Origin: an uncultured cyanobacterium
GTDB lineage: Bacteria; Cyanobacteriota; Cyanobacteriia; PCC-9006; JAAUQQ01
Direction: 5' to 3'
Assembly (NCBI GenBank): GCA_963718615.1
Contig: OY970368.1
Span: 128,001 to 192,000, forward strand
Length of the DNA: 64,000 nt
Below, piece by piece: positions 31,559 to 64,000 of the stretch (position 1 is its first letter; every line of letters starts with the position of its first letter). The translations under genes and the position numbers were made by a program. The notes beneath the pieces were generated by a model, which was given only the letters and a program-made list of their open reading frames with translations, made no database searches and was not told the origin of the DNA.

Positions 31559-32692
31559 CTAGGCAACTGCGTTGCGGATTTCTTGGGCTGTCAAATAGAG
31601 TTTCCCCCAGGAGCGCATGGCCTGAGTCGTCCGCCAGCCCAGTTCTTTGGCGATCGCCTCCAGCGGTTTTCCCGTTTTCATTCCCGCCAAAAGACTCTGT
31701 TCTTCCTCTTCTAGACGCTGCTCTAGAACCTGCCACTGGTTTTCATTCAGCCCTAAGTTATGCTCTCGCACGGACGTCCCTAGCCAATCCGTCACCAGTT
31801 CCGGTTCCACTTTGAGCGAAAATACCTGAACGGCATGGTAGCTGACCTTTTCCCGCAATCGATAGACCTTTTTGATCGGAATTCCCAGATCGGCGGCGAT
31901 CGCATCCTGGGTATAACCCTGTAAATAGAGCCGCAGCCAATCCACCGCCTGGGGTTCAACGCGATCGCTCAAATAAGCCTCAAACTCATCTTGAACCGCC
32001 TTGCGCTGGGCTTGGGTTTGCTCCCAGTCCTGCTGCTGCTGAAACTGCGCCAACGCCTCATGGTCGAACAGACTCATGGGCGTATCTTCCGTATCCGGCG
32101 CAATTTCCTCCGAAATCAAACGCACCATTTCCTTCGCCGGAACCTGGGTTAATCCGCCCCGCTGGGACCGATTGAGATAATTCACAAACCGGTAGACCAA
32201 CAGCGGCTGATTGCGAATCGGACGGAGACAATATTCTTCTAAACTAGCCAACAGCAAGGTATTGCGCAGTTGAGAGCTCGGTGTACATTGACGAATCCAG
32301 CCCATCTGCCGTTGTAGGTGGCGATCGCTTTGGAGCATCTCCTGAATCACTTCCCCCAAGACATCCACGACACTGCGGTAGCGATCGCGGCTTTGGGAGA
32401 CCCAGGTACGAATTTTGCTACGGATAAGGAAAAGACTGCTCAGGCGGCGCATCAGACGCTGATAGGTTTGCTGAGATCCGACTCCGAGATAACGCTGAGT
32501 CAAAATTCGGTAACGGTAATCCATCGCCTGCTGTGCCAGAGTGAGCTCCTGCTCATCAAGCCGATCAAACCGATCTTGGTCTTCCCCCAGCAACCATTGC
32601 ACAATGCTGGCTTTCGTGGCTTGGGACTGTTTGGGGCAGTCTTCATTGAGCCGCGTCATCCATTCCGTTGTGAGGGTGTCCGCCAGTGCCAT
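31559..32692 (-). CDS. HetZ-related protein (second paralog) with two C-terminal HTH-like motifs
   Basis: SIVQWLLGED..QAMDYRYRIL, EEYCLRPIRNQPLL, HTH LYLQGYTQDAIAADLGIPIKKVYRLREK. The WL....HNLGL motif is shared with 34692..35834. Confidence 0.75.
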   Translation of the reverse strand: MALADTLTTEWMTRLNEDCPKQSQATKASIVQWLLGEDQDRFDRLDEQELTLAQQAMDYRYRILTQRYLGVGSQQTYQRLMRRLSSLFLIRSKIRTWVSQSRDRYRSVVDVLGEVIQEMLQSDRHLQRQMGWIRQCTPSSQLRNTLLLASLEEYCLRPIRNQPLLVYRFVNYLNRSQRGGLTQVPAKEMVRLISEEIAPDTEDTPMSLFDHEALAQFQQQQDWEQTQAQRKAVQDEFEAYLSDRVEPQAVDWLRLYLQGYTQDAIAADLGIPIKKVYRLREKVSYHAVQVFSLKVEPELVTDWLGTSVREHNLGLNENQWQVLEQRLEEEEQSLLAGMKTGKPLEAIAKELGWRTTQAMRSWGKLYLTAQEIRNAVA

Positions 32693-32999
32693 CGAATACA
32701 TCCTAAGCTTGGCCTTTCTTTGATTGTTTCACGAGAATTGCCATGTGGGGCATGACATCTATCTATTCGCAGGAAACTTGCCCATTATGCACAATCTCGG
32801 GCGGTTTCTAACTCTAGCCCGAAGCGTCCCCGGTCAGGGTCCATAGCGTTCGTCGGTTGGTTCATGAAGAACAACAGCAAGAACAGGAGACCTGGCAGGA
32901 TTGGGCTAGGATTCGAAACTGAATCCTGTGGTTTCTCCCCGCTTGCCGATGACTGCACGCTCCTTGACACCAAGCTGCCCGACAGCCCATCTGAAGACG

Positions 33000-33666: not shown

Positions 33667-34665
33667 CTAGAGCTGGATGGCAAATCCCAGCGGAGCATCT
33701 CCACCCACTAGGCTGACTTGCAACCGACAAATCGACTCCGGCTGAAGCATCATTTGCAGGACAACGGAACCAGATTCGGTGCGTTCGGCCTGGGTACGCT
33801 GGGCACCCTGCTCTAGTCGCACACTGCCTCCGGCTGGCAACTCGGCTTCAACCCGCAACGTACCGTCCCCATAGGCTAAATGCAGGAGCAGCGGACCTGC
33901 CGCTGTTTCCCAAGACTGACTGATGCTAGGCTCTGCTGCCGACAGCTTCAGCGTCAGACGATTCAGCATTTCGTAGGCCGCAATCATCGCCAGCGTTAGC
34001 TGCTGCTGCTGCGGAGCCGAGGCGTAAGTCTCCGGCATACTATTGCCCAACAAACGCGTCGCCAAGCCTTCGCCATCCCGGCTATAGCCCAAGCGGACCG
34101 CATTGGCCAGCAAATTTAGAGACTGGGGATCAACCGCAAAGAGAGACTCTACTGCTTCTACTAGGCGACGACCGTCTTGGACCGCAGACTGAGCCAAGTC
34201 CTGACAACGCTGAAACAGCTTCGCCAAGATCTCATCAGGCAACGCAACCGGCAAACGGAGCTGACGCAGCTGGGGCTCCCAAGCCGACAGGCCAAGGGTA
34301 GCCGGTAAGGTATCCTCATATTCCATAAGCTCTGTTTCCCAGGGGAAAAGGGGCGGGCGAGCTTCCATTTCCCGCTGGAACCTCTGCTTCAGCAGGGTAT
34401 AAAAGCGTTCTTGTACCACAGATTTTGCTCCCAGTTTAAGTGGTTCGTGCCCTGAAGATCGAGGGATAGCTTTCCCATCAAAAAGATGCATGGTCTCAGG
34501 ACTAAGACTCGGCGCGGGGTCTGTGAGTGATGCATCCCCAAGCGAGTCAGCCCAAACCTCAGAATCAAGCGGGTCAGGGGTTTCAAACCACAGTGCATCC
34601 GCAGGATGCTCCTGGAATAACCAGGCCAAGAACCGCTCCTCTAAGGTGTATGTGTCCCTATTCAT
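33667..34665 (-). CDS. patU: PatU-family protein (single ORF covering the PatU5- and PatU3-like parts)
   Basis: DPLDSE, VQERFYTLLKQRF..PPLFPWE, W..QL..L.LP, QQLTLAMIAAYEML motifs; directly downstream of the hetZ-like gene as in Nostocales. ATG at 34665. Confidence 0.78.
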   Translation of the reverse strand: MNRDTYTLEERFLAWLFQEHPADALWFETPDPLDSEVWADSLGDASLTDPAPSLSPETMHLFDGKAIPRSSGHEPLKLGAKSVVQERFYTLLKQRFQREMEARPPLFPWETELMEYEDTLPATLGLSAWEPQLRQLRLPVALPDEILAKLFQRCQDLAQSAVQDGRRLVEAVESLFAVDPQSLNLLANAVRLGYSRDGEGLATRLLGNSMPETYASAPQQQQLTLAMIAAYEMLNRLTLKLSAAEPSISQSWETAAGPLLLHLAYGDGTLRVEAELPAGGSVRLEQGAQRTQAERTESGSVVLQMMLQPESICRLQVSLVGGDAPLGFAIQL

Positions 34666-34691
34666 TGCCGAGTGCCCCTCTCCGGAAAAAT

Positions 34692-35834
34692 TTAATCCTC
34701 GGCAGCCATTTGTGCCTTTGAGGCAGGCCGATTGCGGAGGTCCCAAGCCTGTTCTAGCATTTTGGACCACTGCCGATTCATCTGCGCAACCGTGCATCCT
34801 AGGTTTTTGGCGATCGCACTATCCTGCACTTGCTCCTGCTTCATCCGTAACAAGTCTGTCTGTTTCGCATTAAGACTATCCTGAAAGACCTCCCATTCTT
34901 GGGGTAATAGCCCCAGGTTATTGTCTAAATCAGCTTCGAGCCACTGGTGCACCAATTCCCACTGGTGCGACATGGAAAATCGAATCAGATGATACTTAAA
35001 GCGCTGCTGCAAATAGTCCCGTTCCCGTGGGGTGAGCCCTAGGATTTCTTCAATTTCACTGGCGGATAGGTCCTGAAGCCGCAGGATAAAGTAATTGGCA
35101 CAGTCCGTCTGCTGTCGAGCCTCTAAATAGCCCAACAGCTCTTGAACTACCTTTTCCCGCAGGGCATCTTCAGCCGGTTCTAGGTCTTGAGCCACCATCT
35201 GCTCCCGCACCTGCTGGAGCGAGGCATTGCCGCGCGCATCATCGGACTCCGAGGTGCTCCCTTCCGCTGCTTGCTCCAGATCGACGAGAGATTCCTGGGG
35301 CTGTTGCTGGGAGAAAGTTTGAACCCGCAGAATGATCAGCTGTTGGCTACGACCGTAGGGGAGCGGAATCCGTCGTTTGGCATAGCGCTCGGTGAACGCC
35401 ATGTATTCGGCTAATTCCAACAGGGTTCGGGGCTGGTAGTCCTCCGCCGATTGCGTCTCCCGACGAAAGACATTGAGGCCCTCCATATAAAAGCCCTGGA
35501 GGAAGTCCTCAATCAGGGTCAGACGGGCCTGATAACTGGCCTGGGCCTTGGCCGGGGTAATATACCGATAAATCACTGCGCTCAAGGTACTATGCAGCTC
35601 CACGCGGCCTTGACGGTGCCCTAGACGGTAGTACTTCAAGCACTGGGACAGCCGATGACGCGCTAAATTTTCGGCCCAAGCTGCGACTTCACCCGATGAC
35701 TGAATGCGATGACTCTCAGTACAGATGCGTTCAACTTCCTCTGCCAGACGAAAGGCGATCGCACGGCAGTTCGAATCGGACGCTCGGGTGGCCTGTCTGA
35801 GCTCGTTGTACAACAGATTGAAAGTTGTCTCCAC
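34692..35834 (-). CDS. hetZ: HetZ-family developmental regulator
   Basis: EVERIC..S.RIQ.SG, GRVELHSTLSAVIYRYI, LIEDFLQGFY, PRTLLELAEYMAFTERYAKRRI, QQLIILR, LGLTPRERDYLQQRFKYH, WELVHQWLEA..NLGL. Confidence 0.82.
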   Translation of the reverse strand: METTFNLLYNELRQATRASDSNCRAIAFRLAEEVERICTESHRIQSSGEVAAWAENLARHRLSQCLKYYRLGHRQGRVELHSTLSAVIYRYITPAKAQASYQARLTLIEDFLQGFYMEGLNVFRRETQSAEDYQPRTLLELAEYMAFTERYAKRRIPLPYGRSQQLIILRVQTFSQQQPQESLVDLEQAAEGSTSESDDARGNASLQQVREQMVAQDLEPAEDALREKVVQELLGYLEARQQTDCANYFILRLQDLSASEIEEILGLTPRERDYLQQRFKYHLIRFSMSHQWELVHQWLEADLDNNLGLLPQEWEVFQDSLNAKQTDLLRMKQEQVQDSAIAKNLGCTVAQMNRQWSKMLEQAWDLRNRPASKAQMAAED

Positions 35835-56449: not shown

Positions 56450-56728
56450 TTGGGAAAGACAACGATGGGTATTGAAGTTGTTTCCCCCGGCGACCAAACC
56501 TCAGACAATTACCAGCGGGATTATGTTCGCAAACGCCGAGAGTATGGGCTGCGAGGGGGTTTAGAGTATTCGATTGTGGATCCAAGTTGTGAGGTTGTGT
56601 TGGTTTTGGCGCTGGAAAGGGCGGCTTACCGTGGGGTTGGAACATTTTGCGGGACAGAGCGTTTGGTGTCGCCGAGTTTTGAGGGGCTGGCGTTGACGAC
56701 GGAGCAGGTGCTGCGGGCAGGGCGGTGA
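56450..56728 (+). pseudogene. Uma2 (DUF820) endonuclease, C-terminal remnant
   Basis: IEVVSPG...RDYVRKRREY..RG..EYSIVDP...SPSF..L.LT.EQVL. The N-terminal half, including the PD motif, is absent. Confidence 0.78.
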
Positions 56729-56854
56729 CTGCGACAAAACATACAAAAATTCGTTTAGATTGGGTACACTATATTCAGTGATTCACCCCATCACAGAATC
56801 AAACATAAGGTATTATGAGCTCAAAATGACTTCTGTGGTTGGGCAGGCATCATC

Positions 56855-57145
56855 TTGAGATTCAAGTTCAAGAGGAAGAAAATAGAAGCTCTCTATACCG
56901 AGGAGAAGAATGCCCACAAGTATCCGAATGTCATAGACGATTTCTTTGATGCGATGAGTGCCATTGATGCAGCCAAGGATGAGCGCGATCTATACGCATT
57001 GAAAGGGTTTCATTTTGAAAAGCTTAAAGGGCGGCAAGGAGAGCGCTCCCTAAGGCTTAACAAACAATGGCGATTAATCGTTTCGCTAGAGGAAGATGAA
57101 GATGGGTCATATCTCCTGATCATTGATATTGAAGACTATCACTGA
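56855..57145 (+). CDS. higB: HigB-family (RelE/ParE superfamily) toxin
   Basis: FEKLKG..GERSLRLNKQWRLI..IIDIEDYH; upstream of the antitoxin as in higBA; TTG start. Confidence 0.88.
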   Translation: MRFKFKRKKIEALYTEEKNAHKYPNVIDDFFDAMSAIDAAKDERDLYALKGFHFEKLKGRQGERSLRLNKQWRLIVSLEEDEDGSYLLIIDIEDYH

Positions 57146-57172
57146 ATTTAAGGACCTACGAGGGGGAGAAGC

Positions 57173-58267
57173 ATGAGCCAAACATTAGCACCAGCAAGGG
57201 TTTCGCCGCCCGGACGTATTTTAAGCCGGGAGATTGAAGCTAGAGGATGGACCCAAAAAGATTTGGCTGAAATCATGGGTCGACCTCATCAAACTATTAA
57301 TGGAATTGTAAAGGGCAATAAGCAAATTACGCCAGAGACGGCGATCGAACTGGCCGAAGCGCTAGGAACTTCTGCTGAGTTTTGGACAAACTTAGAAGCA
57401 AAGTACCGCCTGCATATTGTCCAGAAAGAACTTCGAAATGCGGAAAGAAATAGTGAAATATTTCGCAGAAGCCGTTTGTATACTTTTGCGCCAGTAGCCG
57501 AGATGATTAAGCGGTGCTGGCTTCCCCCTAGTGATTCCATAGACGAATTAGAGGAGAAAGTTTGTCATTTTTTCGGCATTAGCCAAGTCGAAGAGTTTCC
57601 TCAGCTTGCAATCAATTTCCGGCAGTCGGGGAATCGAGATCCCAAGACTCAGGCACAAATGACCTGGGCTAAGAGGGTTGAAAATATTGTGCAGGGACAA
57701 AAGATTCCTGCTTTTGATCGAGCTAGCTTAGAAGCAGCTATTCCCGACATTTTGACTTGTGCTGCGGATGCAGAAGATATTGCGCTTGTCCCCCCCAAGC
57801 TACTATCCCTGGGAATTCATTTCGCAATTGTCCCTCATTTAGAAAGAACCTATTTAGATGGTGCTGCCTTTTACCTTGAAGATGCTCCCGTTATTGCACT
57901 CACGTTACGACATAAGCGCATCGATAACTTCTGGTTTACTCTGATGCATGAGTTAGGTCATATTGTGGCAGGACATCAAGGTCGCTATCTTGATGATATG
58001 GAGAATCTCGAAGTGGAAGAAGAAGAGGAAGAAGCCAATCGGCTCGCTACTAGTTGGTTGTTAGATAGCGCTGAAGTTGAACGATTTGTTCTTAAGAATC
58101 AGCCTTATTTTTCTTCAACAAAAGTTCAGAATTTTGCGATATCTCAGGATCGTCACCCAGGCATATTAGTGGGACGTTTACATCAAAAGAAAGTAATTTC
58201 CTACAGGAACCATAAGAAGTTCTTGGTCAAGATTGATCAGTATCTTACTGATTACATTTATCCATAG
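57173..58267 (+). CDS. higA: HigA-family antitoxin (Xre HTH) fused to an ImmA/IrrE (M78) metallopeptidase domain
   Basis: PPGRIL..E...GWTQKDLA..INGIVKG..ITPETAIELA..LGTSAEFW.NL HTH; C-terminal LDGAAF, DNFWFTLMHELGH (HExxH), EEEAN. Confidence 0.88.
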   Translation: MSQTLAPARVSPPGRILSREIEARGWTQKDLAEIMGRPHQTINGIVKGNKQITPETAIELAEALGTSAEFWTNLEAKYRLHIVQKELRNAERNSEIFRRSRLYTFAPVAEMIKRCWLPPSDSIDELEEKVCHFFGISQVEEFPQLAINFRQSGNRDPKTQAQMTWAKRVENIVQGQKIPAFDRASLEAAIPDILTCAADAEDIALVPPKLLSLGIHFAIVPHLERTYLDGAAFYLEDAPVIALTLRHKRIDNFWFTLMHELGHIVAGHQGRYLDDMENLEVEEEEEEANRLATSWLLDSAEVERFVLKNQPYFSSTKVQNFAISQDRHPGILVGRLHQKKVISYRNHKKFLVKIDQYLTDYIYP

Positions 58268-58349
58268 AACTCTGATAGGCATAGAATTCTAAGCCATGTT
58301 GTTCATCCTCATCGTGGGAATAAGGTCAAGCAAAGACTTTGGAGAAAAG

Positions 58350-59780
58350 TTAGGGTTCCAAAATTCGCAATCGCCGCAGAATTAGCTGACTCACCCGCTC
58401 TTGGCGCGTTTCAATATCCGCGCGACCTTCCAAACCGGGCTGAATCGGACAGGTCAAACTACCGCTGGTCAAAACCGTTTGCTCTGGCTCCAGGGTGACG
58501 CGGTAGGCGCGGGTGTCGCCCTGGGGTTCGGTGTCTGGGGCGATCGCCCTCACCCGACTGGGCAGCGTCCCAAAATCCGTATAGGGACAGGCCGAGATCC
58601 GCACCTGAGCCGCTTGATTCAACTGAACCTGATTAATATCCTCCGCTGACACCCAAGCCTGAATCTCCAGGGATGCCGCCTTGGGCAAAATCTCCACGAG
58701 TAAATCCCCTGGCTGAACCGTCTGACCTGCATTGCGCAGGTTAATCGCCTGGACGACCCCATCGATAGGACTGCGGAGCGATCGCCGTTCCCGTTCTTCC
58801 TCAATCCGCGCCAGCATCTGCATCGCCGTTTGCTGCTGGGCTAGGCGTTCGCTCTGCTGCTGCTGGAGTTCCTGCTGTTGCTGTTGGAGCTGGGCCAGGC
58901 GAGTTTGGACCTGAACCTGGGCTTGGGCAATGTTAGTTTGAGCGATGTCTAGGGAGGCGCTGCTGGGGTGGAGTTGGGCCTCTAGGCTGAGGAGCTGGGC
59001 TTGGGCACGCTGCAACTCGGCCTGTTTGTTGCGGACCTGTTGCTGGGCGATCGCCCCTGCATCCGCCAGCCCCTGCAATCGCCTCAGCTCATCGCTCAAC
59101 ACCGTCACATCGGTCTTGGCAATCTCAAACTGCGCCTGACGCTGAATCTGTTCCTCCCCATAGCGCTGCTGACTGAGCCGCTGTTCCGCTTGGGCCTGGT
59201 TCAAGGCCAGCGACCCCTGGGCCAATTCCGTTTGAATTTGCAGATTGAGCGCTTGGATTTGCAGATCGCCCTGACGCCGCTGGGCGGTGAGTTGCTGAAG
59301 CAAGGTTTGCTGTTGCTGCTGCTGGAGTTGGAGGTCGCGATCGTCCAGTCGCAACAACACATCCCCCTTTTTGACCGTAGCGTAGGGTTGGACCATGAGG
59401 TCGGCGATCGTACCGGGGATTTCGCTTTGGATTTGGTAGAGTTCGCCGCTGGGCCGGACGACAGCTGGCGCTTTGATGGTCGTGCGGTAGGGGGTAAATT
59501 GGACCGAAACGAAGGCAGCGGTAAGGGTGCCCAGGAGGGCGATCGCCCCCCCACTCATCCAACCCCTAACCTGGGGCAGGAGCAACTCCGACGACAACAT
59601 CGGCAAGCTTCCCGGCTGGGGCAGTTTTTCCCAGGGAGATGACGCTTGGGCAGGCGCTTCCGGCGGCAGCTTACCGCGCGATCGCAGCCCAGTGGGCCGT
59701 TGATTGGGCCGTTGATTTTTAGGAGAGGACTTGGGGCGCTGGGCGGGGGGCTGGGAAGAAGCAGAATTAGCCGGAGTCAT
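58350..59780 (-). CDS. HlyD-family periplasmic adaptor of a peptide/type I secretion system
   Basis: Single TM, VRPSGE..IQS...G.I, VKKGD.L..LDD, Gln-rich coiled coil, RSPIDG, VRISACPYTDFGTL, IQPGLEGRADI. Confidence 0.92.
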   Translation of the reverse strand: MTPANSASSQPPAQRPKSSPKNQRPNQRPTGLRSRGKLPPEAPAQASSPWEKLPQPGSLPMLSSELLLPQVRGWMSGGAIALLGTLTAAFVSVQFTPYRTTIKAPAVVRPSGELYQIQSEIPGTIADLMVQPYATVKKGDVLLRLDDRDLQLQQQQQQTLLQQLTAQRRQGDLQIQALNLQIQTELAQGSLALNQAQAEQRLSQQRYGEEQIQRQAQFEIAKTDVTVLSDELRRLQGLADAGAIAQQQVRNKQAELQRAQAQLLSLEAQLHPSSASLDIAQTNIAQAQVQVQTRLAQLQQQQQELQQQQSERLAQQQTAMQMLARIEEERERRSLRSPIDGVVQAINLRNAGQTVQPGDLLVEILPKAASLEIQAWVSAEDINQVQLNQAAQVRISACPYTDFGTLPSRVRAIAPDTEPQGDTRAYRVTLEPEQTVLTSGSLTCPIQPGLEGRADIETRQERVSQLILRRLRILEP

Positions 59781-62700
59781 GTCTTCGTCTCGGGGAGGCG
59801 CGCTGCACAGCTCGGTGCAGCGGTAGCCCTAGAGGATAGAGGATGGGAAGAAGGCGTTAAGACAACCTGACTCTGAGCATTAAGGCTCCACCCTTGCGCT
59901 TCTTGCAGCGTAGAGGATGGAACCCCTGGGACATCGGTAGATGCAGACGCAGTGCGTGAATCTTGCCAGAGGGAACCCGCGTTGAGGGTCGCCTGAGGAT
60001 TCGTCGGTAAGCCACCCCGGCCCGTAGTCACAAAGGTTCCCTGAGTAGCTTGACCACACTGAGCCACAATTTGCTGGTTGGCATCCACCAGCTGATCCGG
60101 CAGCTCCGGGAGAGACTGACTGGGGTCGATACCGGGGGTCTCTAGCTCAACGGTGCCGTCAAACTGAGCGCCAAGGCCAGAGCTGGCAGTGATATCGCTA
60201 TTTGGGGTTAATTGTTCCCGGAATTGAATGCCAAATATCCGCTGGGCCGCAATCTCGACCTGTCCGCCAAAATTGCTGGCGGCATTGGCCGTAATATCGC
60301 TATTTTCATCAGCAGGGGCGATTAGAAATCCAGTCTTGATTTGGATATTCCCCCCGGTGGCATCGCCCTGGGCATCGGTGTAGATGCGGCTGCCGTTGCG
60401 GAGGACCAGCAGATTCGAGAGCAAGGCAATGTTGCCCTGATCGCCTCCGGCACTGCCAGCGGTCAACGTACTGTGGTCAAGACTAATAATGTCTGCAGTG
60501 AGATTTAGGCTACCTGCCGATCCATTGCCCGGTGGCAGCAAACCCTGGCTTTGAAAATTGCTGGCGCTAATGGTTGCCCCGGTCTGTAGGCTCAGATCGC
60601 GGGTCTCGACAGTTACCGTCCCTCCATTACCGGTTCCCAGAATGGCGTTGGCAAACAAACCGCTCCGACCATTGGCCGTTCCACCGCCGACCAATTCAAT
60701 CCGATCCTGAGCCCGAACGATCAGATCACCGGCATTGCCTGCACCTAAGGTACTGACCGCAATTTGCCCACCTCCAGTTATCTGCAATTGGTTCGTTTCC
60801 ACGATGAGCTGTCCCCCGTTGCCCGTCGCGTTGGGCTGGACGAGGGCAAACAAGCCGCTGGGAGAAGCATCGTCGGGGCTGACGCCGTCGATCTGAATTT
60901 GGTTGGCTTGGACAAGGAGCTGTCCGCCATCACCGCTGCTGAACGTACTGACTGCGGCTCTGGCTCCCCCGGTGATCTGAAGGGTGTCTGTGTCGATCTT
61001 GAGCATGCCGCCGGAGCCGGTAGCATTGCCTTGAGCCTGGGCAAACAGGCCGCTGAGATTATCGGTATTCCCCAGACCGGTGAGAACAACAGCACGGGCT
61101 TTAATGTCTAAGACTCCGCCTTGGCCTGCACCGTAGGTACTCACAGAAACCGTGCCACCGTTGAGGGCCGTGAGCTGATCAACCGTAAGATGAACCTCAC
61201 CGCCATTGCCGCTACCGTAGGTTTGGGAAAAGATGCCGCTGGGAGAATCGACGATGGATAACCCTTCGAGTTTGACCCGGTCAGCGGTGATATTGATGGA
61301 GCCGGAATTGCCGGAGTCGAGGGCGATCGCCGCAATATTCCCCCCATCCGTCAACCCAAGCTCAGGCGTCTTCACCGAAATATCTCCCCCGGCCCCCGTA
61401 GCAAAGGCATAGGAAAATAATCCACTGGGAACCCCCTGGGCGCTGGTTCCCAATATATGCAGATATTCGCTGGCGTCTATCCGGAGGGGACTAGCCTGTC
61501 CTGGGCCGGCACTGTAGCTCAAAAGCGTCGCCCCATCCCGCAGATTCATCCGCTGAGTTGCAATCTCAACACCGGCTGCGCTACTGGGAGAAAAAACGCT
61601 GCTAAAAATTCCACTACCAAAGTTTTCCAGGTCGATTTGGTCTGCTTCGATTCGCAGCAAACCTGCCGTGCCTAAATCATAGGTATTGACAGTCAAGACT
61701 CCACTTTGCTGCAGCGTGAGCTGCGGGGTTTTCACCAAAATCGAACTGCCTTGCCCCGCTGCACCGAACTCCACGTCCGCGCGAATAAAGCTGAATTGGC
61801 CTTGACCTTGACCAATGAGCGTCAATGCTTCGTTGGCCGTAATTGAAATTTGTCCCCCTGGTGTACTGCTCGTGCCGCCGGTTGTGTTGCTGACCAAACC
61901 GCTGCCTTCCAGCAGCGCGATGCGGTTGCCTTGGAGGGAAATGGAACCGGGGCGATCGCCCGACACATCCCCCGAGGCTTGCCGCAAGGTAATATTGCCC
62001 AAAGCTTGACCGGGCTGGGGGCCCTGGGTCAAATCTAGGGAGCCATCGGACAAGGCCCAAAGATTCAGCGTTCCGCTTGGGGCTGTTAAATTTCCGCCCA
62101 CCAAATCGATATTGGGGGCAGCCAGCAGCAATGTCTTTCCGGCAGCTACGGCTAACCCCTCGGGACGGTTGGAGCGATCGAGAATAAAAAACTGAGGATC
62201 GGTACTGTATTGATTGCCCGTGCCTGCCACTTGAATTAATCCAGCGTTAGGGTCGGTAATCGGGGAATTGGCGCTGGAGCCGAACTGGAGACCGACGGGG
62301 GTGCTGACGGTGAGGAGATTGGGGGGTTGGGGGGCGATCGCACTAAATTCGCTGCCATCGCTCAAGGTCAAACCAGATGCCGTACTGGCGTAAAAACTGC
62401 CCCCTAACTGAAGGGATGCATTGGGGCCAAACAGAATCCCAGCCGGATTAATCAAAAAGAAATCCGCTGTACCGTCGGCCCGAATCTTTCCATCCAAACG
62501 AGATGCCGTACCGCCCGTAACGCGGCTCAAAATGGCGGCTAATCCAGAGGCATTTTGGAAATAAACCGTTTCGTTAGTTCCCAGAGAAAACTGCTCAAAG
62601 CTATGCAATCGCCGATTGTCCAGCAAGGTCCCCCCCTCAATGCAGTAGGTAACGGCACAACTGCTGTTGAGCTGAGTCCCTGCGGTTGAGTCCGGAATGA

Positions 62701-62803
62701 TCTGGGCTTGAACCGGTGCAATCCACTGGCTTGCCAGCAGAACTCCGCCCGTCAATCCGGACTTGAGCGGTAGGCGAGGGAAACCGGTGTGAAGCAGACG
62801 CAT
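59777..62803 (-). CDS. Filamentous-haemagglutinin N-terminal (TPS-domain) beta-helical exoprotein
   Basis: Signal peptide (VQA-QIIPD), LHSFEQFS, ILSRVTGG..S..DG, LINPAGILFGPNASLQLGGSF.ASTA, many Gly-rich (S/N)GLF..GxGGxL repeats, C-terminal TGRGGLP/EAQGW. Confidence 0.9.
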   Translation of the reverse strand: MRLLHTGFPRLPLKSGLTGGVLLASQWIAPVQAQIIPDSTAGTQLNSSCAVTYCIEGGTLLDNRRLHSFEQFSLGTNETVYFQNASGLAAILSRVTGGTASRLDGKIRADGTADFFLINPAGILFGPNASLQLGGSFYASTASGLTLSDGSEFSAIAPQPPNLLTVSTPVGLQFGSSANSPITDPNAGLIQVAGTGNQYSTDPQFFILDRSNRPEGLAVAAGKTLLLAAPNIDLVGGNLTAPSGTLNLWALSDGSLDLTQGPQPGQALGNITLRQASGDVSGDRPGSISLQGNRIALLEGSGLVSNTTGGTSSTPGGQISITANEALTLIGQGQGQFSFIRADVEFGAAGQGSSILVKTPQLTLQQSGVLTVNTYDLGTAGLLRIEADQIDLENFGSGIFSSVFSPSSAAGVEIATQRMNLRDGATLLSYSAGPGQASPLRIDASEYLHILGTSAQGVPSGLFSYAFATGAGGDISVKTPELGLTDGGNIAAIALDSGNSGSINITADRVKLEGLSIVDSPSGIFSQTYGSGNGGEVHLTVDQLTALNGGTVSVSTYGAGQGGVLDIKARAVVLTGLGNTDNLSGLFAQAQGNATGSGGMLKIDTDTLQITGGARAAVSTFSSGDGGQLLVQANQIQIDGVSPDDASPSGLFALVQPNATGNGGQLIVETNQLQITGGGQIAVSTLGAGNAGDLIVRAQDRIELVGGGTANGRSGLFANAILGTGNGGTVTVETRDLSLQTGATISASNFQSQGLLPPGNGSAGSLNLTADIISLDHSTLTAGSAGGDQGNIALLSNLLVLRNGSRIYTDAQGDATGGNIQIKTGFLIAPADENSDITANAASNFGGQVEIAAQRIFGIQFREQLTPNSDITASSGLGAQFDGTVELETPGIDPSQSLPELPDQLVDANQQIVAQCGQATQGTFVTTGRGGLPTNPQATLNAGSLWQDSRTASASTDVPGVPSSTLQEAQGWSLNAQSQVVLTPSSHPLSSRATAAPSCAARLPETKT

Positions 62804-62974
62804 AGATTTGAGGTAGGAAGACTCAGCTTAAGGATTCCCAAAGTTTGGGGTGCTCCAACGCTGACAGAGATTCAGCTGACAGAGATTCAAATGTCCGTCT
62901 GCGGAGAAACACTCTCCGCAGGAGATCTTTTCTAGACGACTTTCCTGGACGACTTTTCCAAAGGACAGATTTAC

Positions 62975-63187
62975 TTAAGTGTTTTGATCGACCTGAGTAT
63001 TACAATCCAAACCACCGGTTGTGCTCAATCCACCACCACCGCCACCGCTGCCACCACCAAAGGGCCAAATCGGAGGCCAACCGCCCTGAGCGTTTTCTTG
63101 GTCTTCTTCCGAGAGCTCCGTCCACAGTTCAGCTTGGGGAGGCTCGGAAGGCTGAGATTGCTTTTTTTTGTTTTTGTTCCAATTCAT
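62975..63187 (-). CDS. Double-glycine-leader secreted peptide precursor 1
   Basis: Leader ends ELWTELSEEDQENAQGG; core WPPIWPFGGGSGGGGGGLSTTGGLDCNTQVDQNT; next to HlyD and the C39 exporter. Confidence 0.82.
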   Translation of the reverse strand: MNWNKNKKKQSQPSEPPQAELWTELSEEDQENAQGGWPPIWPFGGGSGGGGGGLSTTGGLDCNTQVDQNT

Positions 63188-63636
63188 GGTGAGGACCTGC
63201 GAAGAAGTGATGAGAAAGCAGTTAGATGGAGCTGACTTATGAACCGAGGCTTTCGATTGAATGATTCAAATCTAATCAGCCTAATCGTCTGAATACATCA
63301 AGAATTAATTCCCAGCGGGAGTAGAAGCAACAGCCGAAATAGCAACGTTGCTAGCTGAGCTGCTAATGACTGCACTCATGCCACCGCCACCACCACCGCT
63401 GCCACCGCCAATCGGCCAAATCGGAGGCCAACCGCCCTGAGCGTTTTCTTGGTCTGCTTCCGAGAGCTCCGTCCACAGTTCAGCTTGGGGAGGCTCGGAA
63501 GATTGAGATTGCTGCTTTTTGTTCCAATTCATGGCGATAACTTACAAAGAAGTGATGAGAAGGAAGTTAGATGAAGCTGGTTTCTTGAACCAATACTTCC
63601 GGTTGGATGATTCAAATCTAACAAGCCTAATCGTCT
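63032..63636. repeat. Tandem duplication (two ~255-bp homologous units, 63032-63290 and 63382-63636) covering the upstream leader and the 5' two-thirds of each peptide gene
   Basis: Near-identical coding DNA for the leader, WPPIWP and Gly linker. Similar upstream sequence ends sharply at CTAATCGTCT in both copies. Confidence 0.9.
63305..63532 (-). CDS. Double-glycine-leader secreted peptide precursor 2
   Basis: Leader ends ELWTELSEADQENAQGG; core WPPIWPIGGGSGGGGGGMSAVISSSASNVAISAVASTPAGN. Confidence 0.82.
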   Translation of the reverse strand: MNWNKKQQSQSSEPPQAELWTELSEADQENAQGGWPPIWPIGGGSGGGGGGMSAVISSSASNVAISAVASTPAGN

Positions 63637-63920
63637 TTTAGTTAAGGCTTTGAGCAAGATTTTCTTAGGAATTGAATGAATAGTTTTTGGTGAGTTCAAG
63701 GGAATTACGGCCTACTTGAGAAACTTATCTTTGAGAACTGCGTGATTTTGCAGAGCGATCGCAAACCTCAAGAACCTTTCACGATTCCTCAGCACATCGG
63801 CATTTACAGTTCTACTCATTCCGGCAAATTTTGCAGATCTACGAATCCGTATTTTCCTGAGTTATTCAGGTTTTTCAACGGTGAACAATAGGTTGAATCC
63901 GAAGATCTCCCCCCTGCTCT

Positions 63921-64000
63921 ATGCGCTATCCCGCGATTCTTCAACATTCCGAAGAGGACTGCGGTGCCGCTTGCCTCGCCTCGATCGCCCAGTACCACGG
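63921..64000 (+). CDS. C39-peptidase-domain ABC transporter (PCAT), 5' end only, runs off the window
   Basis: Hand translation from ATG 63921: MRYPAILQHSEEDCGAACLASIAQYH(G), which is the C39 Q-x5-C catalytic motif (QHSEEDCGAACL). The ABC part is inferred, not visible. Confidence 0.88.
   Translation, partial: MRYPAILQHSEEDCGAACLASIAQYH

Follow-up and report, generated by a model that had tools for sequence, protein, structure and literature searches.

The window analysed here, that is, the whole stretch of 64,000 nt of DNA, carries between positions 58350 and 64000 a group of genes which we read, as the probable though by no means certain explanation, as the visible part of a cyanobacterial export locus for peptides with a double-glycine (GG) leader, with a TpsA-type exoprotein of two-partner secretion (TPS) encoded in the same operon and with peptide export and a surface fibre forming one joint system. 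The genes comprise two tandem precursor peptides, the TPS-domain exoprotein and an HlyD-family adaptor, all on one strand (minus), and, divergent from them, the start of a peptidase-containing ABC transporter (PCAT) with a C39 peptidase domain. That the exoprotein, which is like filamentous haemagglutinin (FHA), belongs with the export genes and is no chance neighbour, as a first-pass annotation of this DNA had held, is supported by three observations: (i) the stop codon of the TPS gene and the start codon of hlyD overlap in the sequence ATGA (59777-59780, direct reading), (ii) of 80 related loci 15 have TPS-like genes, 16 in all, and 14 of these lie within 4 kb of the PCAT-HlyD core, and (iii) a mirror locus, L049, repeats the peptide-TPS pair with a homologous peptide.

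The features of the locus, obtained from a translation-table-11 listing of open reading frames (ORFs) and by direct reading, are as follows.

58350-59780, minus strand: hlyD, 476 aa, HlyD-family periplasmic adaptor (Pfam HlyD_3, HlyD_D23)
59777-62803, minus strand: gene of the TPS-domain exoprotein (TpsA-type), 1008 aa (PF05860, TIGR01901)
62898..62922: stem-loop of 10 bp in the gap from the peptide 2 stop to the TPS start, with no T run after it on the coding (minus) strand
62975-63187, minus strand: precursor peptide 2, 70 aa: core of 34 aa behind a 36-aa leader with a GG end
63188-63304, minus strand: upstream region of peptide 2, with the second copy of a conserved segment of about 105 nt; no Rfam match
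63305-63532, minus strand: precursor peptide 1, 75 aa: core of 41 aa behind an acidic leader of 34 aa with a GG end
63533-63920: divergent intergenic region between peptide 1 and the PCAT, 388 bp
63921-64000, plus strand: start of the C39 PCAT, ATG at 63921, first 26 codons (80 bases), the gene continuing past the window edge

All the elements that the first-pass annotation had assembled into a module (two GG-leader peptides, an FHA-like exoprotein, HlyD and a divergent C39 start) were recovered in place. Its two negative claims about the visible part also held: domain scans of the 58-64 kb region matched no LanM, YcaO, radical SAM or similar enzyme, i.e. none that would modify a ribosomally synthesised and post-translationally modified peptide (RiPP), and a hydropathy window detected no credible small membrane protein, and no obvious immunity gene was seen, in 58200-64000. 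The two peptide genes, the TPS gene and hlyD are likely to be co-transcribed, and both divergent promoters presumably lie within 63533-63920, where a single consensus promoter-like match was seen (63878-63851, minus strand); in the promoter and terminator scans, matches were no commoner than in shuffled sequence. As a guess, the stem-loop at 62898..62922 might be an attenuator or an RNA-stability element; an Rfam scan of 56500-64000 gave no match. HIP1 sites (GCGATCGC), which are typical of cyanobacterial genomes, number 86 in the window and 9 within 58350-64000 (5.6 kb), the latter being the usual density of this genome; the window is therefore cyanobacterial, and the genes of the locus look native to the genome.

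The export genes and their products

The divergent C39 start read at 63921 by the first-pass annotation is real. Its 26 residues contain QHSEEDCGAACL, the catalytic-cysteine motif, with the catalytic Cys in the Q(x)5-6DCG context that marks membership of the PCATs; they match PF03412 (Peptidase_C39, profile positions 1-25) with an E-value of 1.1e-6 and 28.9 bits against a cut-off of 22, and they align with the N-termini of 66 of the 82 PCAT ORFs of related loci (median identity 73%; best 87%, in L014, L025 and L045). The match begins at transporter residue 1 in 33 of these 66, and the PCAT ORF lengths there cluster around 714-750 aa. Because of these residue-1 matches, we take the fragment to open a PCAT of what Wang et al. 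(2011) call the short type, which is assigned there to the clusters of groups III to V (PMC3140520; this and the other papers are cited here from excerpts). The full architecture of C39, transmembrane and nucleotide-binding domains is present in related loci (L024 as the representative).

The adaptor matches HlyD_3 (1.1e-19), HlyD_D23 (4.6e-16) and Biotin_lipoyl_2, all above the Pfam cut-offs, and has a single hydrophobic segment at residues 75-93, so that it shows both the membrane anchor and the domains of the HlyD family. The NCBIfam model TIGR01843 (type_I_hlyD) scores 140.5 bits, under its cut-off of 208.65, and the best relatives are 39-40% identical; by these scores the window HlyD is a divergent family member. 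Since its relatives align only from about residue 54 on, an alternative start of hlyD at Met61 is possible, which would leave a gap of about 177 nt to the TPS gene.

Both precursor peptides were singled out by a hidden Markov model (HMM) of the leader, built with 18 columns from 63 distinct GG leaders of related loci: of the window's 1572 six-frame ORFs (25 aa or longer) they ranked first and second (E = 0.0064 and 0.018), the next ORF standing at 2.8. With their leader charges of -4 and -3, their GG ends and a PCAT start 388 bp away, they have the features of GG-leader precursors; the leaders carry Ala at -4, Gln at -7, Leu at -12 and Trp at -15. Identity between the two peptides is 86% for the first 43 residues, and beyond these the similarity ends abruptly. 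At the DNA level the near-identity covers roughly 105 nt of upstream sequence, then the leader, and then the core as far as its codon 17, where it stops just as abruptly, with a mean column identity of 81% over the whole duplicated unit; the region upstream of peptide 2 belongs to this unit because it holds the second copy of the segment. Only two sequences underlie the common fold predicted for the conserved upstream segments (63533-63640 and 63188-63292, minus strand), which is weak (-10.5 kcal/mol, with 3 base pairs altered on both sides), and the upstream region of the L049 peptide gave no convincing alignment to them.

In the predicted core of peptide 1 (41 aa), WPPIWP stands first, then a Gly run and then a tail rich in Ser, Ala and Val; 76% of this core is G/A/S/V/I and it is net neutral. 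The predicted core of peptide 2 (34 aa) has the same WPPIWP and Gly run, 44% G/A/S/V/I and an acidic net charge, and its tail, unrelated to that of peptide 1, is polar with one Cys. As to a hydrophobic GxxxG zipper, the cores have no extended stretch of this kind, only the poly-Gly run.

A word-seeded (k-mer) search with peptide 1 returned the window's own two copies only. Orphan status was nevertheless ruled out by a profile search, and the word-seeded result reflects a limit of sensitivity: a profile of three peptides, run on 1.84 billion representatives, gave 10 proteins with E<=1e-3, including the window's own two. The other eight (P0243-P0250) are 53-138 aa long. All ten have a leader of the type LWTE[IV]S.EQQE..[KQ]GG, followed directly by an aromatic-proline motif, [WYF]P..WP; a Gly run usually comes after this motif, and the tails are unrelated. 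On these matches the peptide family is small but real. No name for it was found in Pfam or NCBIfam, the assignments tried being rejected as sub-threshold (YxzE, 18.8 bits vs 40; plantaricin C, 15.7-16.7 vs 29). The nearest clusters in the ESM Atlas are cyanobacterial 'bacteriocin family' peptides, at 0.82-0.85, which is under the 0.9 mark and makes them leads only. A tblastn search of plasmids with P0243 gave no match.

The exoprotein matches PF05860, the TPS secretion domain, at 6e-44 (151.3 bits vs a cut-off of 33.5) and TIGR01901 with 82.4 bits (vs 29.1), and NPAGI at residues 119-123 supplies the NPxG motif expected of a TpsA protein. Its parts follow one another as a Sec-like signal (1-32), the TPS domain (33-263), a beta-helix that reaches roughly to residue 890, and last a C-terminal module. 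The signal, like other signal peptides and membrane segments in this work, was assigned by visual inspection or a simple hydropathy window, here by inspection: a hydrophobic segment at 20-31 is followed by AQ|I, and it is similar in related loci. In an AlphaFold2 (AF2) model built with 56 aligned relatives (pLDDT 81.5, pTM 0.77), regular strands run from 53 to 890, and as modelled the protein is a right-handed beta-helix of the TpsA kind. When the model was searched against the Protein Data Bank (PDB) with Foldseek, the top matches were two-partner-secretion exoproteins, i.e. EtpA (6e-6), HxuA (1.9e-4) and the EtpA/HMW1 secretion domains (1.3e-3), with low query-normalised TM-scores (0.14-0.26), since long rods superpose poorly. 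The C-terminal 110 residues have low AF2 confidence; they include the family-invariant C916 and C999 and the motif TGRGGLP, and the conserved C-terminal module of the cyanobacterial TPS family (window residues 916-999) also has an EAxGW hairpin. We know of no function assigned to this module. Relatives of the TPS protein are abundant: 3245 were found among 8000 candidates scored (best non-self identity 43%), including a paralogue, P0092, in the same genome, and the family occurs at 143 places on 83 plasmids, the contexts inspected there being TPS with CHAT, or TPS alone.

Related loci and neighbouring genes

The comparison set consisted of 80 related loci, taken from 601 matching stretches as relatives of 31-39% identity, the source genome not being among them. 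In these loci ORFs of at least 70 aa were called greedily and clustered by BLASTP, and 30 selected clusters (of the 43 largest; 522 in total) were annotated with Pfam. HlyD is present in all 80 by construction, and a PCAT adjoins hlyD in 72. GG-leader small proteins of many unrelated core families accompany the PCAT-HlyD pairs, and at E<=0.05 the leader HMM gave 129 matches, spread over 40 of the 80 loci. The TPS-like genes of the 15 linked loci occur in at least four gene orders; 467 kb of sequence was available within the 4 kb that hold 14 of the 16 genes, and 419 kb at 4-10 kb, where the other 2 lie. The arrangements seen were the following.

10 Nostoc-type loci: to the left, usually a LuxR-type regulator gene and then CHASE2; to the right, divergently, TPS, 1-3 GG proteins of 110-123 aa, PCAT and HlyD
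L063 and L071: PCAT, HlyD, TPS and CHAT, in one direction
L041: TPS (gene split), PCAT and HlyD, in one direction
L031: GG protein, PCAT, HlyD, AAA_35, AAA_35-CHASE2 and DUF928, in one direction; a distant CHAT and TPS on the other strand
L049: to the left, peptide and then TPS; to the right, divergently, PCAT and HlyD

All 11 loci with CHASE2 and all 5 with CHAT fall among the 15 TPS-linked loci; beside the TPS genes of the window and of L049 no CHAT, CHASE2 or DUF928 is in view. In the Nostoc loci the cores of the GG proteins are about 80 aa long and match beta/gamma-crystallin weakly (PF00030, 5.8e-4, under the cut-off).

The closest counterpart of the window is L049, from a metagenome-assembled genome titled Cyanobacteria bacterium J06554_1, where a motif scan together with the ORF listing disclosed a 71-aa peptide ORF. 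Its leader is 43% identical to that of the window (E = 2e-8 pairwise; 2.2e-7 by phmmer against 26362 ORFs), and its core opens with the aromatic-proline motif, followed by six Gly. After 199 nt the peptide gene is followed, in the same orientation, by a TPS gene of 884 aa; the product of the latter is 33-38% identical to the window TPS protein, and both genes are divergent from a PCAT with an N-terminus 80% identical to the window fragment. As the window and L049 share this order, the arrangement of a peptide gene followed by a TPS gene, divergent from the PCAT, is conserved in two distant genomes; the position of hlyD differs, being after the PCAT in L049 and after the TPS gene in the window. 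L049, a locus of 21 kb, showed no tailoring enzyme, as far as its ORFs were scanned, and no sensor or regulator gene stands beside its peptide. Between two convergent PCAT-HlyD pairs, L049 and two other loci carry a DUF6232 protein (match 1.3e-6) of 208-213 aa with two hydrophobic segments, which could be an immunity or accessory membrane protein:

L041, 11318-11944, minus strand: DUF6232 protein
L049, 11271-11912, minus strand: DUF6232 protein
L035, 1347-1988, minus strand: DUF6232 protein

Two trees were used to follow the history of the association. In the HlyD tree (82 rows, IQ-TREE quick mode, LG+G4, ORFs <380 aa excluded) the TPS-linked loci fall into one 26-row clade, of which 12 rows are linked, and into a group formed by L041, L049 and L035. 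In the TPS tree (69 rows including 55 database rows, FastTree, ORFs <600 aa excluded) the 10 Nostoc PCAT-linked proteins form one clade (support 100) with both gene orders inside, and L041 lies elsewhere. A single dedicated subfamily of PCAT-linked TPS proteins is not supported as one clade by this tree, which gives a Nostoc clade, L041 apart, and the window, L049 and L031 loosely together. We read this as at least two or three TPS lineages that would have come to stand beside PCAT-HlyD pairs, with rearrangement and occasional loss.

Some further observations were made on these loci. A pair formed by CHASE2 and a LuxR-type response regulator stands divergently upstream of TPS in L030, L033, L037, L042, L056, L064, L067, L072 and L076. 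Directly upstream of the PCAT of L044, at 151-450 on the plus strand, lies a GG-leader ORF with a window-like leader (..ELWQDL.E.D.E.LKGG), the predicted core of which opens with a hydrophobic segment, LLLPAVQAAREAARN, a start that we take to resemble the N-terminus of type IV pilin-like proteins. In several PCAT loci of Nostocales, GG-leader peptides have cores that are low-complexity repeats of Gly, Tyr, Phe, Arg and Pro, for example GYGG or YPPY runs; Gly-rich aromatic cargo appears to be a wider theme of these exporters. The Gly/aromatic-repeat peptides are:

L073, 15609-15797, plus strand
L051, 15726-16019, plus strand
L069, 15871-16191, plus strand
L075, 15408-15767, plus strand
L079, 15279-15479, plus strand
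L043, 14309-14485, plus strand

Elsewhere in the window, at 56855-58267 on the plus strand, an ORF for a HigB-like toxin (96 aa, PF05015 at 6.9e-10) is followed by one for a 364-aa protein with HTH_3 and Peptidase_M78 (ImmA/IrrE) domains and a TIGR02607 HigA match. The GC content of this stretch is about 0.44-0.48, as compared with 0.58 in the adjoining hlyD and TPS genes, and it may be a toxin-antitoxin-like pair inserted at the edge of the locus. Another cell-surface locus of the window is a long polysaccharide biosynthesis cluster at about 6687-28583, with two Polysacc_synt flippase-like genes, a ligase/polymerase (Wzy_C), a chain-length protein (Wzz/GNVR), nucleotidyl transferases, an epimerase and at least 6 glycosyltransferases. 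Two 380-aa ORFs (31559-32701 and 34692-35834, both minus strand) have no Pfam match and are distant paralogues, with 29% identity across some 250 residues (E = 5e-15). Between the two lies a 376-aa ORF (33667-34797) that has no Pfam match either and is unrelated to the second.

A probable joint export and fibre system and the competing readings

In exporters of this kind the cytoplasmic C39 domain binds the acidic leader and cuts after the GG, and the ABC transporter, HlyD and a TolC-type outer-membrane channel make up the export core (PMC3140520, PMC5380434). In the reading that we favour, the products of the window would be unmodified peptides of 41 and 34 aa, each with a WPPIWP start, a Gly run and a different tail, and these cores would leave the cell by way of the PCAT, HlyD and a TolC-type channel encoded elsewhere. 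The TPS protein would take a separate route, through Sec and then a TpsB encoded outside the window, and would fold into a beta-helical fibre of about 800 residues, and fibre and peptides would act together outside the cell. Because the pairing recurs in other cyanobacteria, the peptides and the surface fibre probably cooperate at the cell surface. The most likely role would be a surface-associated assembly for adhesion, aggregation or cell-cell recognition, to which the variable tails would give specificity; a toxic version of the same arrangement, like the Cdz system of Caulobacter, is the main alternative. A non-toxic surface or matrix role is suggested by the precedent of EbfG/PteB (see below), the match to the adhesin EtpA, the weak beta/gamma-crystallin match of the Nostoc cargo and the fact that no immunity-like gene is visible, whereas the conserved head with variable tails, the core with 76% G/A/S/V/I and the DUF6232 protein in L049, L041 and L035 point to antagonism or recognition.

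Several observations weigh against the joint reading. The PCAT is visible in the window for 26 residues only, and no TpsB (ShlB/POTRA) was found among the 35 larger window ORFs, the 30 cluster representatives and 17 further ORFs of TPS-linked loci, which are part of all ORFs; TpsB may be encoded elsewhere in the genome. The published leader consensus, M(R/K)ELX3E(I/L)X2(I/V)XG(G/A), has hydrophobic residues at -4 and -7 in the quoted part of PMC3140520, from which the Ala at -4 and the Gln at -7 of the window differ, the latter being found also in leaders of related cyanobacterial loci. As regards the link itself, L030 and L033 hold TPS fragments only, the TPS gene is missing from four Nostoc-clade loci with enough flank (L039, L048, L052 and L062; five further loci of this clade end at contig ends), none of the 44 rows of the other large HlyD clade is TPS-linked, and on a Calothrix plasmid a WD-repeat protein in the TPS position weakens the association. 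Since many of the linked loci come from closely related Nostoc genomes, fewer independent events lie behind them than their number suggests. Finally, the window HlyD sits on a long branch (1.1) and its placement is unreliable, and the window TPS protein, grouped with L049, L031 and P0092 (support 92) on long branches, is poorly placed as well.

Possible, though on balance unlikely, is that the locus makes a bacteriocin-like, microcin-like or Cdz-like two-peptide toxin, for which the TPS fibre gives contact or retention and whose immunity gene lies past the window edge. A GG leader with a PCAT and HlyD is the classic export apparatus of unmodified bacteriocins (PMC3140520, PMC5380434), the two peptides stand in tandem with one shared leader, and the 76% G/A/S/V/I of the peptide 1 core may be set beside the approximately 75% glycine and small hydrophobic residues of CdzC/CdzD (PMC5380434). 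Conflict or recognition loci typically show a similarity that breaks off abruptly, as happens here after the Gly run, both between the two copies and throughout the family; the DUF6232 protein, with two transmembrane segments and located between transporter genes in L049, L041 and L035, is a possible immunity protein, and the 'bacteriocin family' neighbours in the ESM Atlas (0.82-0.85) are leads in the same direction. However, the visible part of the window has no small membrane protein, the tail of peptide 2 is polar and acidic and thus not membrane-active in character, the cores show a poly-Gly run in place of an extended GxxxG zipper in a hydrophobic stretch, and the TPS-linked cargo of Nostoc, with its roughly 80 aa and weak beta/gamma-crystallin match, looks structural.

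Rather unlikely, in our view, is that the TPS gene is functionally independent, one member of a large family placed between the precursors and hlyD of a plain GG-peptide exporter. The size of the family (3245 among 8000 scored; 143 places on 83 plasmids) speaks for such independence, as do its usual company elsewhere (CHAT, or TPS alone), its absence or decay in several related PCAT loci and the WD-repeat protein at the equivalent position of the Calothrix plasmid. It accords poorly with the ATGA overlap between the TPS stop and the hlyD start, with 14 TPS genes at 4 kb or less from the core vs 2 at 4-10 kb, with an association that survives several rearrangements, and with L049, where the peptide-TPS pair is repeated with a homologous peptide.

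We give little credence to a more specific form of the joint reading, in which the TpsA protein, exported by Sec and TpsB, would be a scaffold on which the type I-exported peptides dock through their aromatic-proline/poly-Gly head and display their variable tails. A predicted complex of TPS residues 33-960 with the peptide 1 core scored 0.02 against a mark of 0.32, in a run without controls, and so speaks neither for nor against it. Were this form true, the specificity of a fibre, be it for kin recognition or contact-dependent attack, would be set by swappable peptides, a kind of system undescribed for either pathway.

It is improbable, moreover, that the exported peptides are signals of the ComAB/ComC type, sensed outside the cytoplasm and regulating surface genes including that of the TPS protein. 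Consistent with signalling are the 11 of 11 CHASE2 loci that are TPS-linked, most of them with a LuxR-type response regulator divergent from TPS, the large hybrid kinases downstream in L056, L064 and L072, and the regulation of ebfG through an extracellular factor in S. elongatus (PMC4997328); neither the visible window nor the neighbourhood of the L049 peptide has a sensor or regulator gene, and in Nostoc the cargo, a folded domain of some 80 aa, is no short pheromone. Very improbable is that the peptides are RiPP precursors with tailoring enzymes (acting on Trp, Pro or Cys) past the window edge or elsewhere in the genome: short-type PCATs also serve LanM and three-gene transport clusters (groups IV and V; PMC3140520), an enzyme could recognise or modify the conserved aromatic-proline motif that immediately follows the cleavage site, and the region downstream of the PCAT lies outside the window, but no tailoring enzyme was matched at 58-64 kb or in L049 as far as scanned, and in most of the 80 related loci there is nothing beyond PCAT, HlyD and peptides.

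Cyanobacteria very commonly carry loci for GG-leader peptides, and EbfG/PteB is the one case of a tested non-antibiotic role for them that we found in the excerpts used. The large FHA-like, CHAT and CHASE2 families of cyanobacteria have, to our knowledge, no known function. The recurrent link between a peptide exporter and a TPS protein offers a testable handle on both. If fibre and peptides cooperate, this would account for the retention of small secreted peptides on the cell surface, and it would suggest for the abundant cyanobacterial TpsA proteins a role in adhesion, aggregation, biofilm formation or filament-filament recognition. The peptide family is small enough for direct genetics and for work with synthetic peptides.

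Comparison with known systems

With the clusters of groups III-V described by Wang, Fewer and Sivonen (2011; PMC3140520, in excerpt), the window shares tandem GG precursors, an N-terminal C39 domain, HlyD and poorly conserved cores. Group III is defined by a short-type PCAT, HlyD and precursors, with neither a second ABC transporter nor LanM; up to position 64000 the window shows the short-type N-terminus and HlyD, which would suit any of the three groups (PMC3140520). Unlike those clusters, the window has a TpsA gene between the precursors and hlyD, and its hlyD lies apart from the PCAT on the opposite strand. EbfG1-4/PteB of Synechococcus elongatus PCC 7942 is alike by architecture alone, in having small GG proteins, a C39 transporter and HlyD (PMC12267927), and its products are secreted matrix or surface proteins and no antibiotics (PMC4997328, PMC9981879); the excerpts of these papers report no TPS protein in that cluster, in contrast to the window.

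The Cdz system of Caulobacter crescentus resembles the window in its two small Gly-rich proteins, its type I ABC transporter with HlyD and its divergent operons, and its Gly-rich proteins stay on the surface of the producer (PMC5380434, in excerpt). It differs from the window in that an adjacent small membrane immunity protein, CdzI, is present there, TpsA is lacking, and CdzC/CdzD have extended hydrophobic glycine zippers, whereas the window cores have a poly-Gly run and the aromatic-proline motif. Within 58200-64000 neither of the marks of a Cdz-type system, an adjacent immunity protein and zipper cores, was found.

As comparison adhesins for the window TPS protein we take the two-partner pairs FHA/FhaC, EtpA/EtpB, HMW1/HMW1B and HxuA/HxuB. 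The likeness lies in the TPS domain with its NPxG, the long right-handed beta-helix and the Sec-type signal. The window TPS gene differs from these pairs in having no adjoining TpsB gene and in standing in an operon with a type I secretion adaptor, and its product has a cyanobacteria-specific C-terminal module with two invariant cysteines. The cyanobacterial neighbourhood of FHA-N with CHAT (and CHASE2 or DUF928) involves the same protein family as the window TPS protein and occurs beside PCAT-HlyD pairs in 11 loci. We know of no published function for this neighbourhood.

No paper linking TPS or FHA-like proteins to cyanobacterial PCAT loci was found in the full text of open-access papers and preprints, supplements aside; the word 'hemagglutinin' has zero occurrences in PMC3140520 and zero in PMC12267927, and neither the polymorphic-toxin paper of Zhang (2012; PMC3482391) nor an ISME J paper of 2024 (PMC10811720) has a TPS-PCAT link. 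The first-pass annotation had proposed an undescribed system, and this goes too far: in its export core, a short PCAT with HlyD, the locus is of an already known cluster type, corresponding to groups III-V of PMC3140520 as excerpted, and what is new is the peptide family together with the recurring link to a TPS protein.

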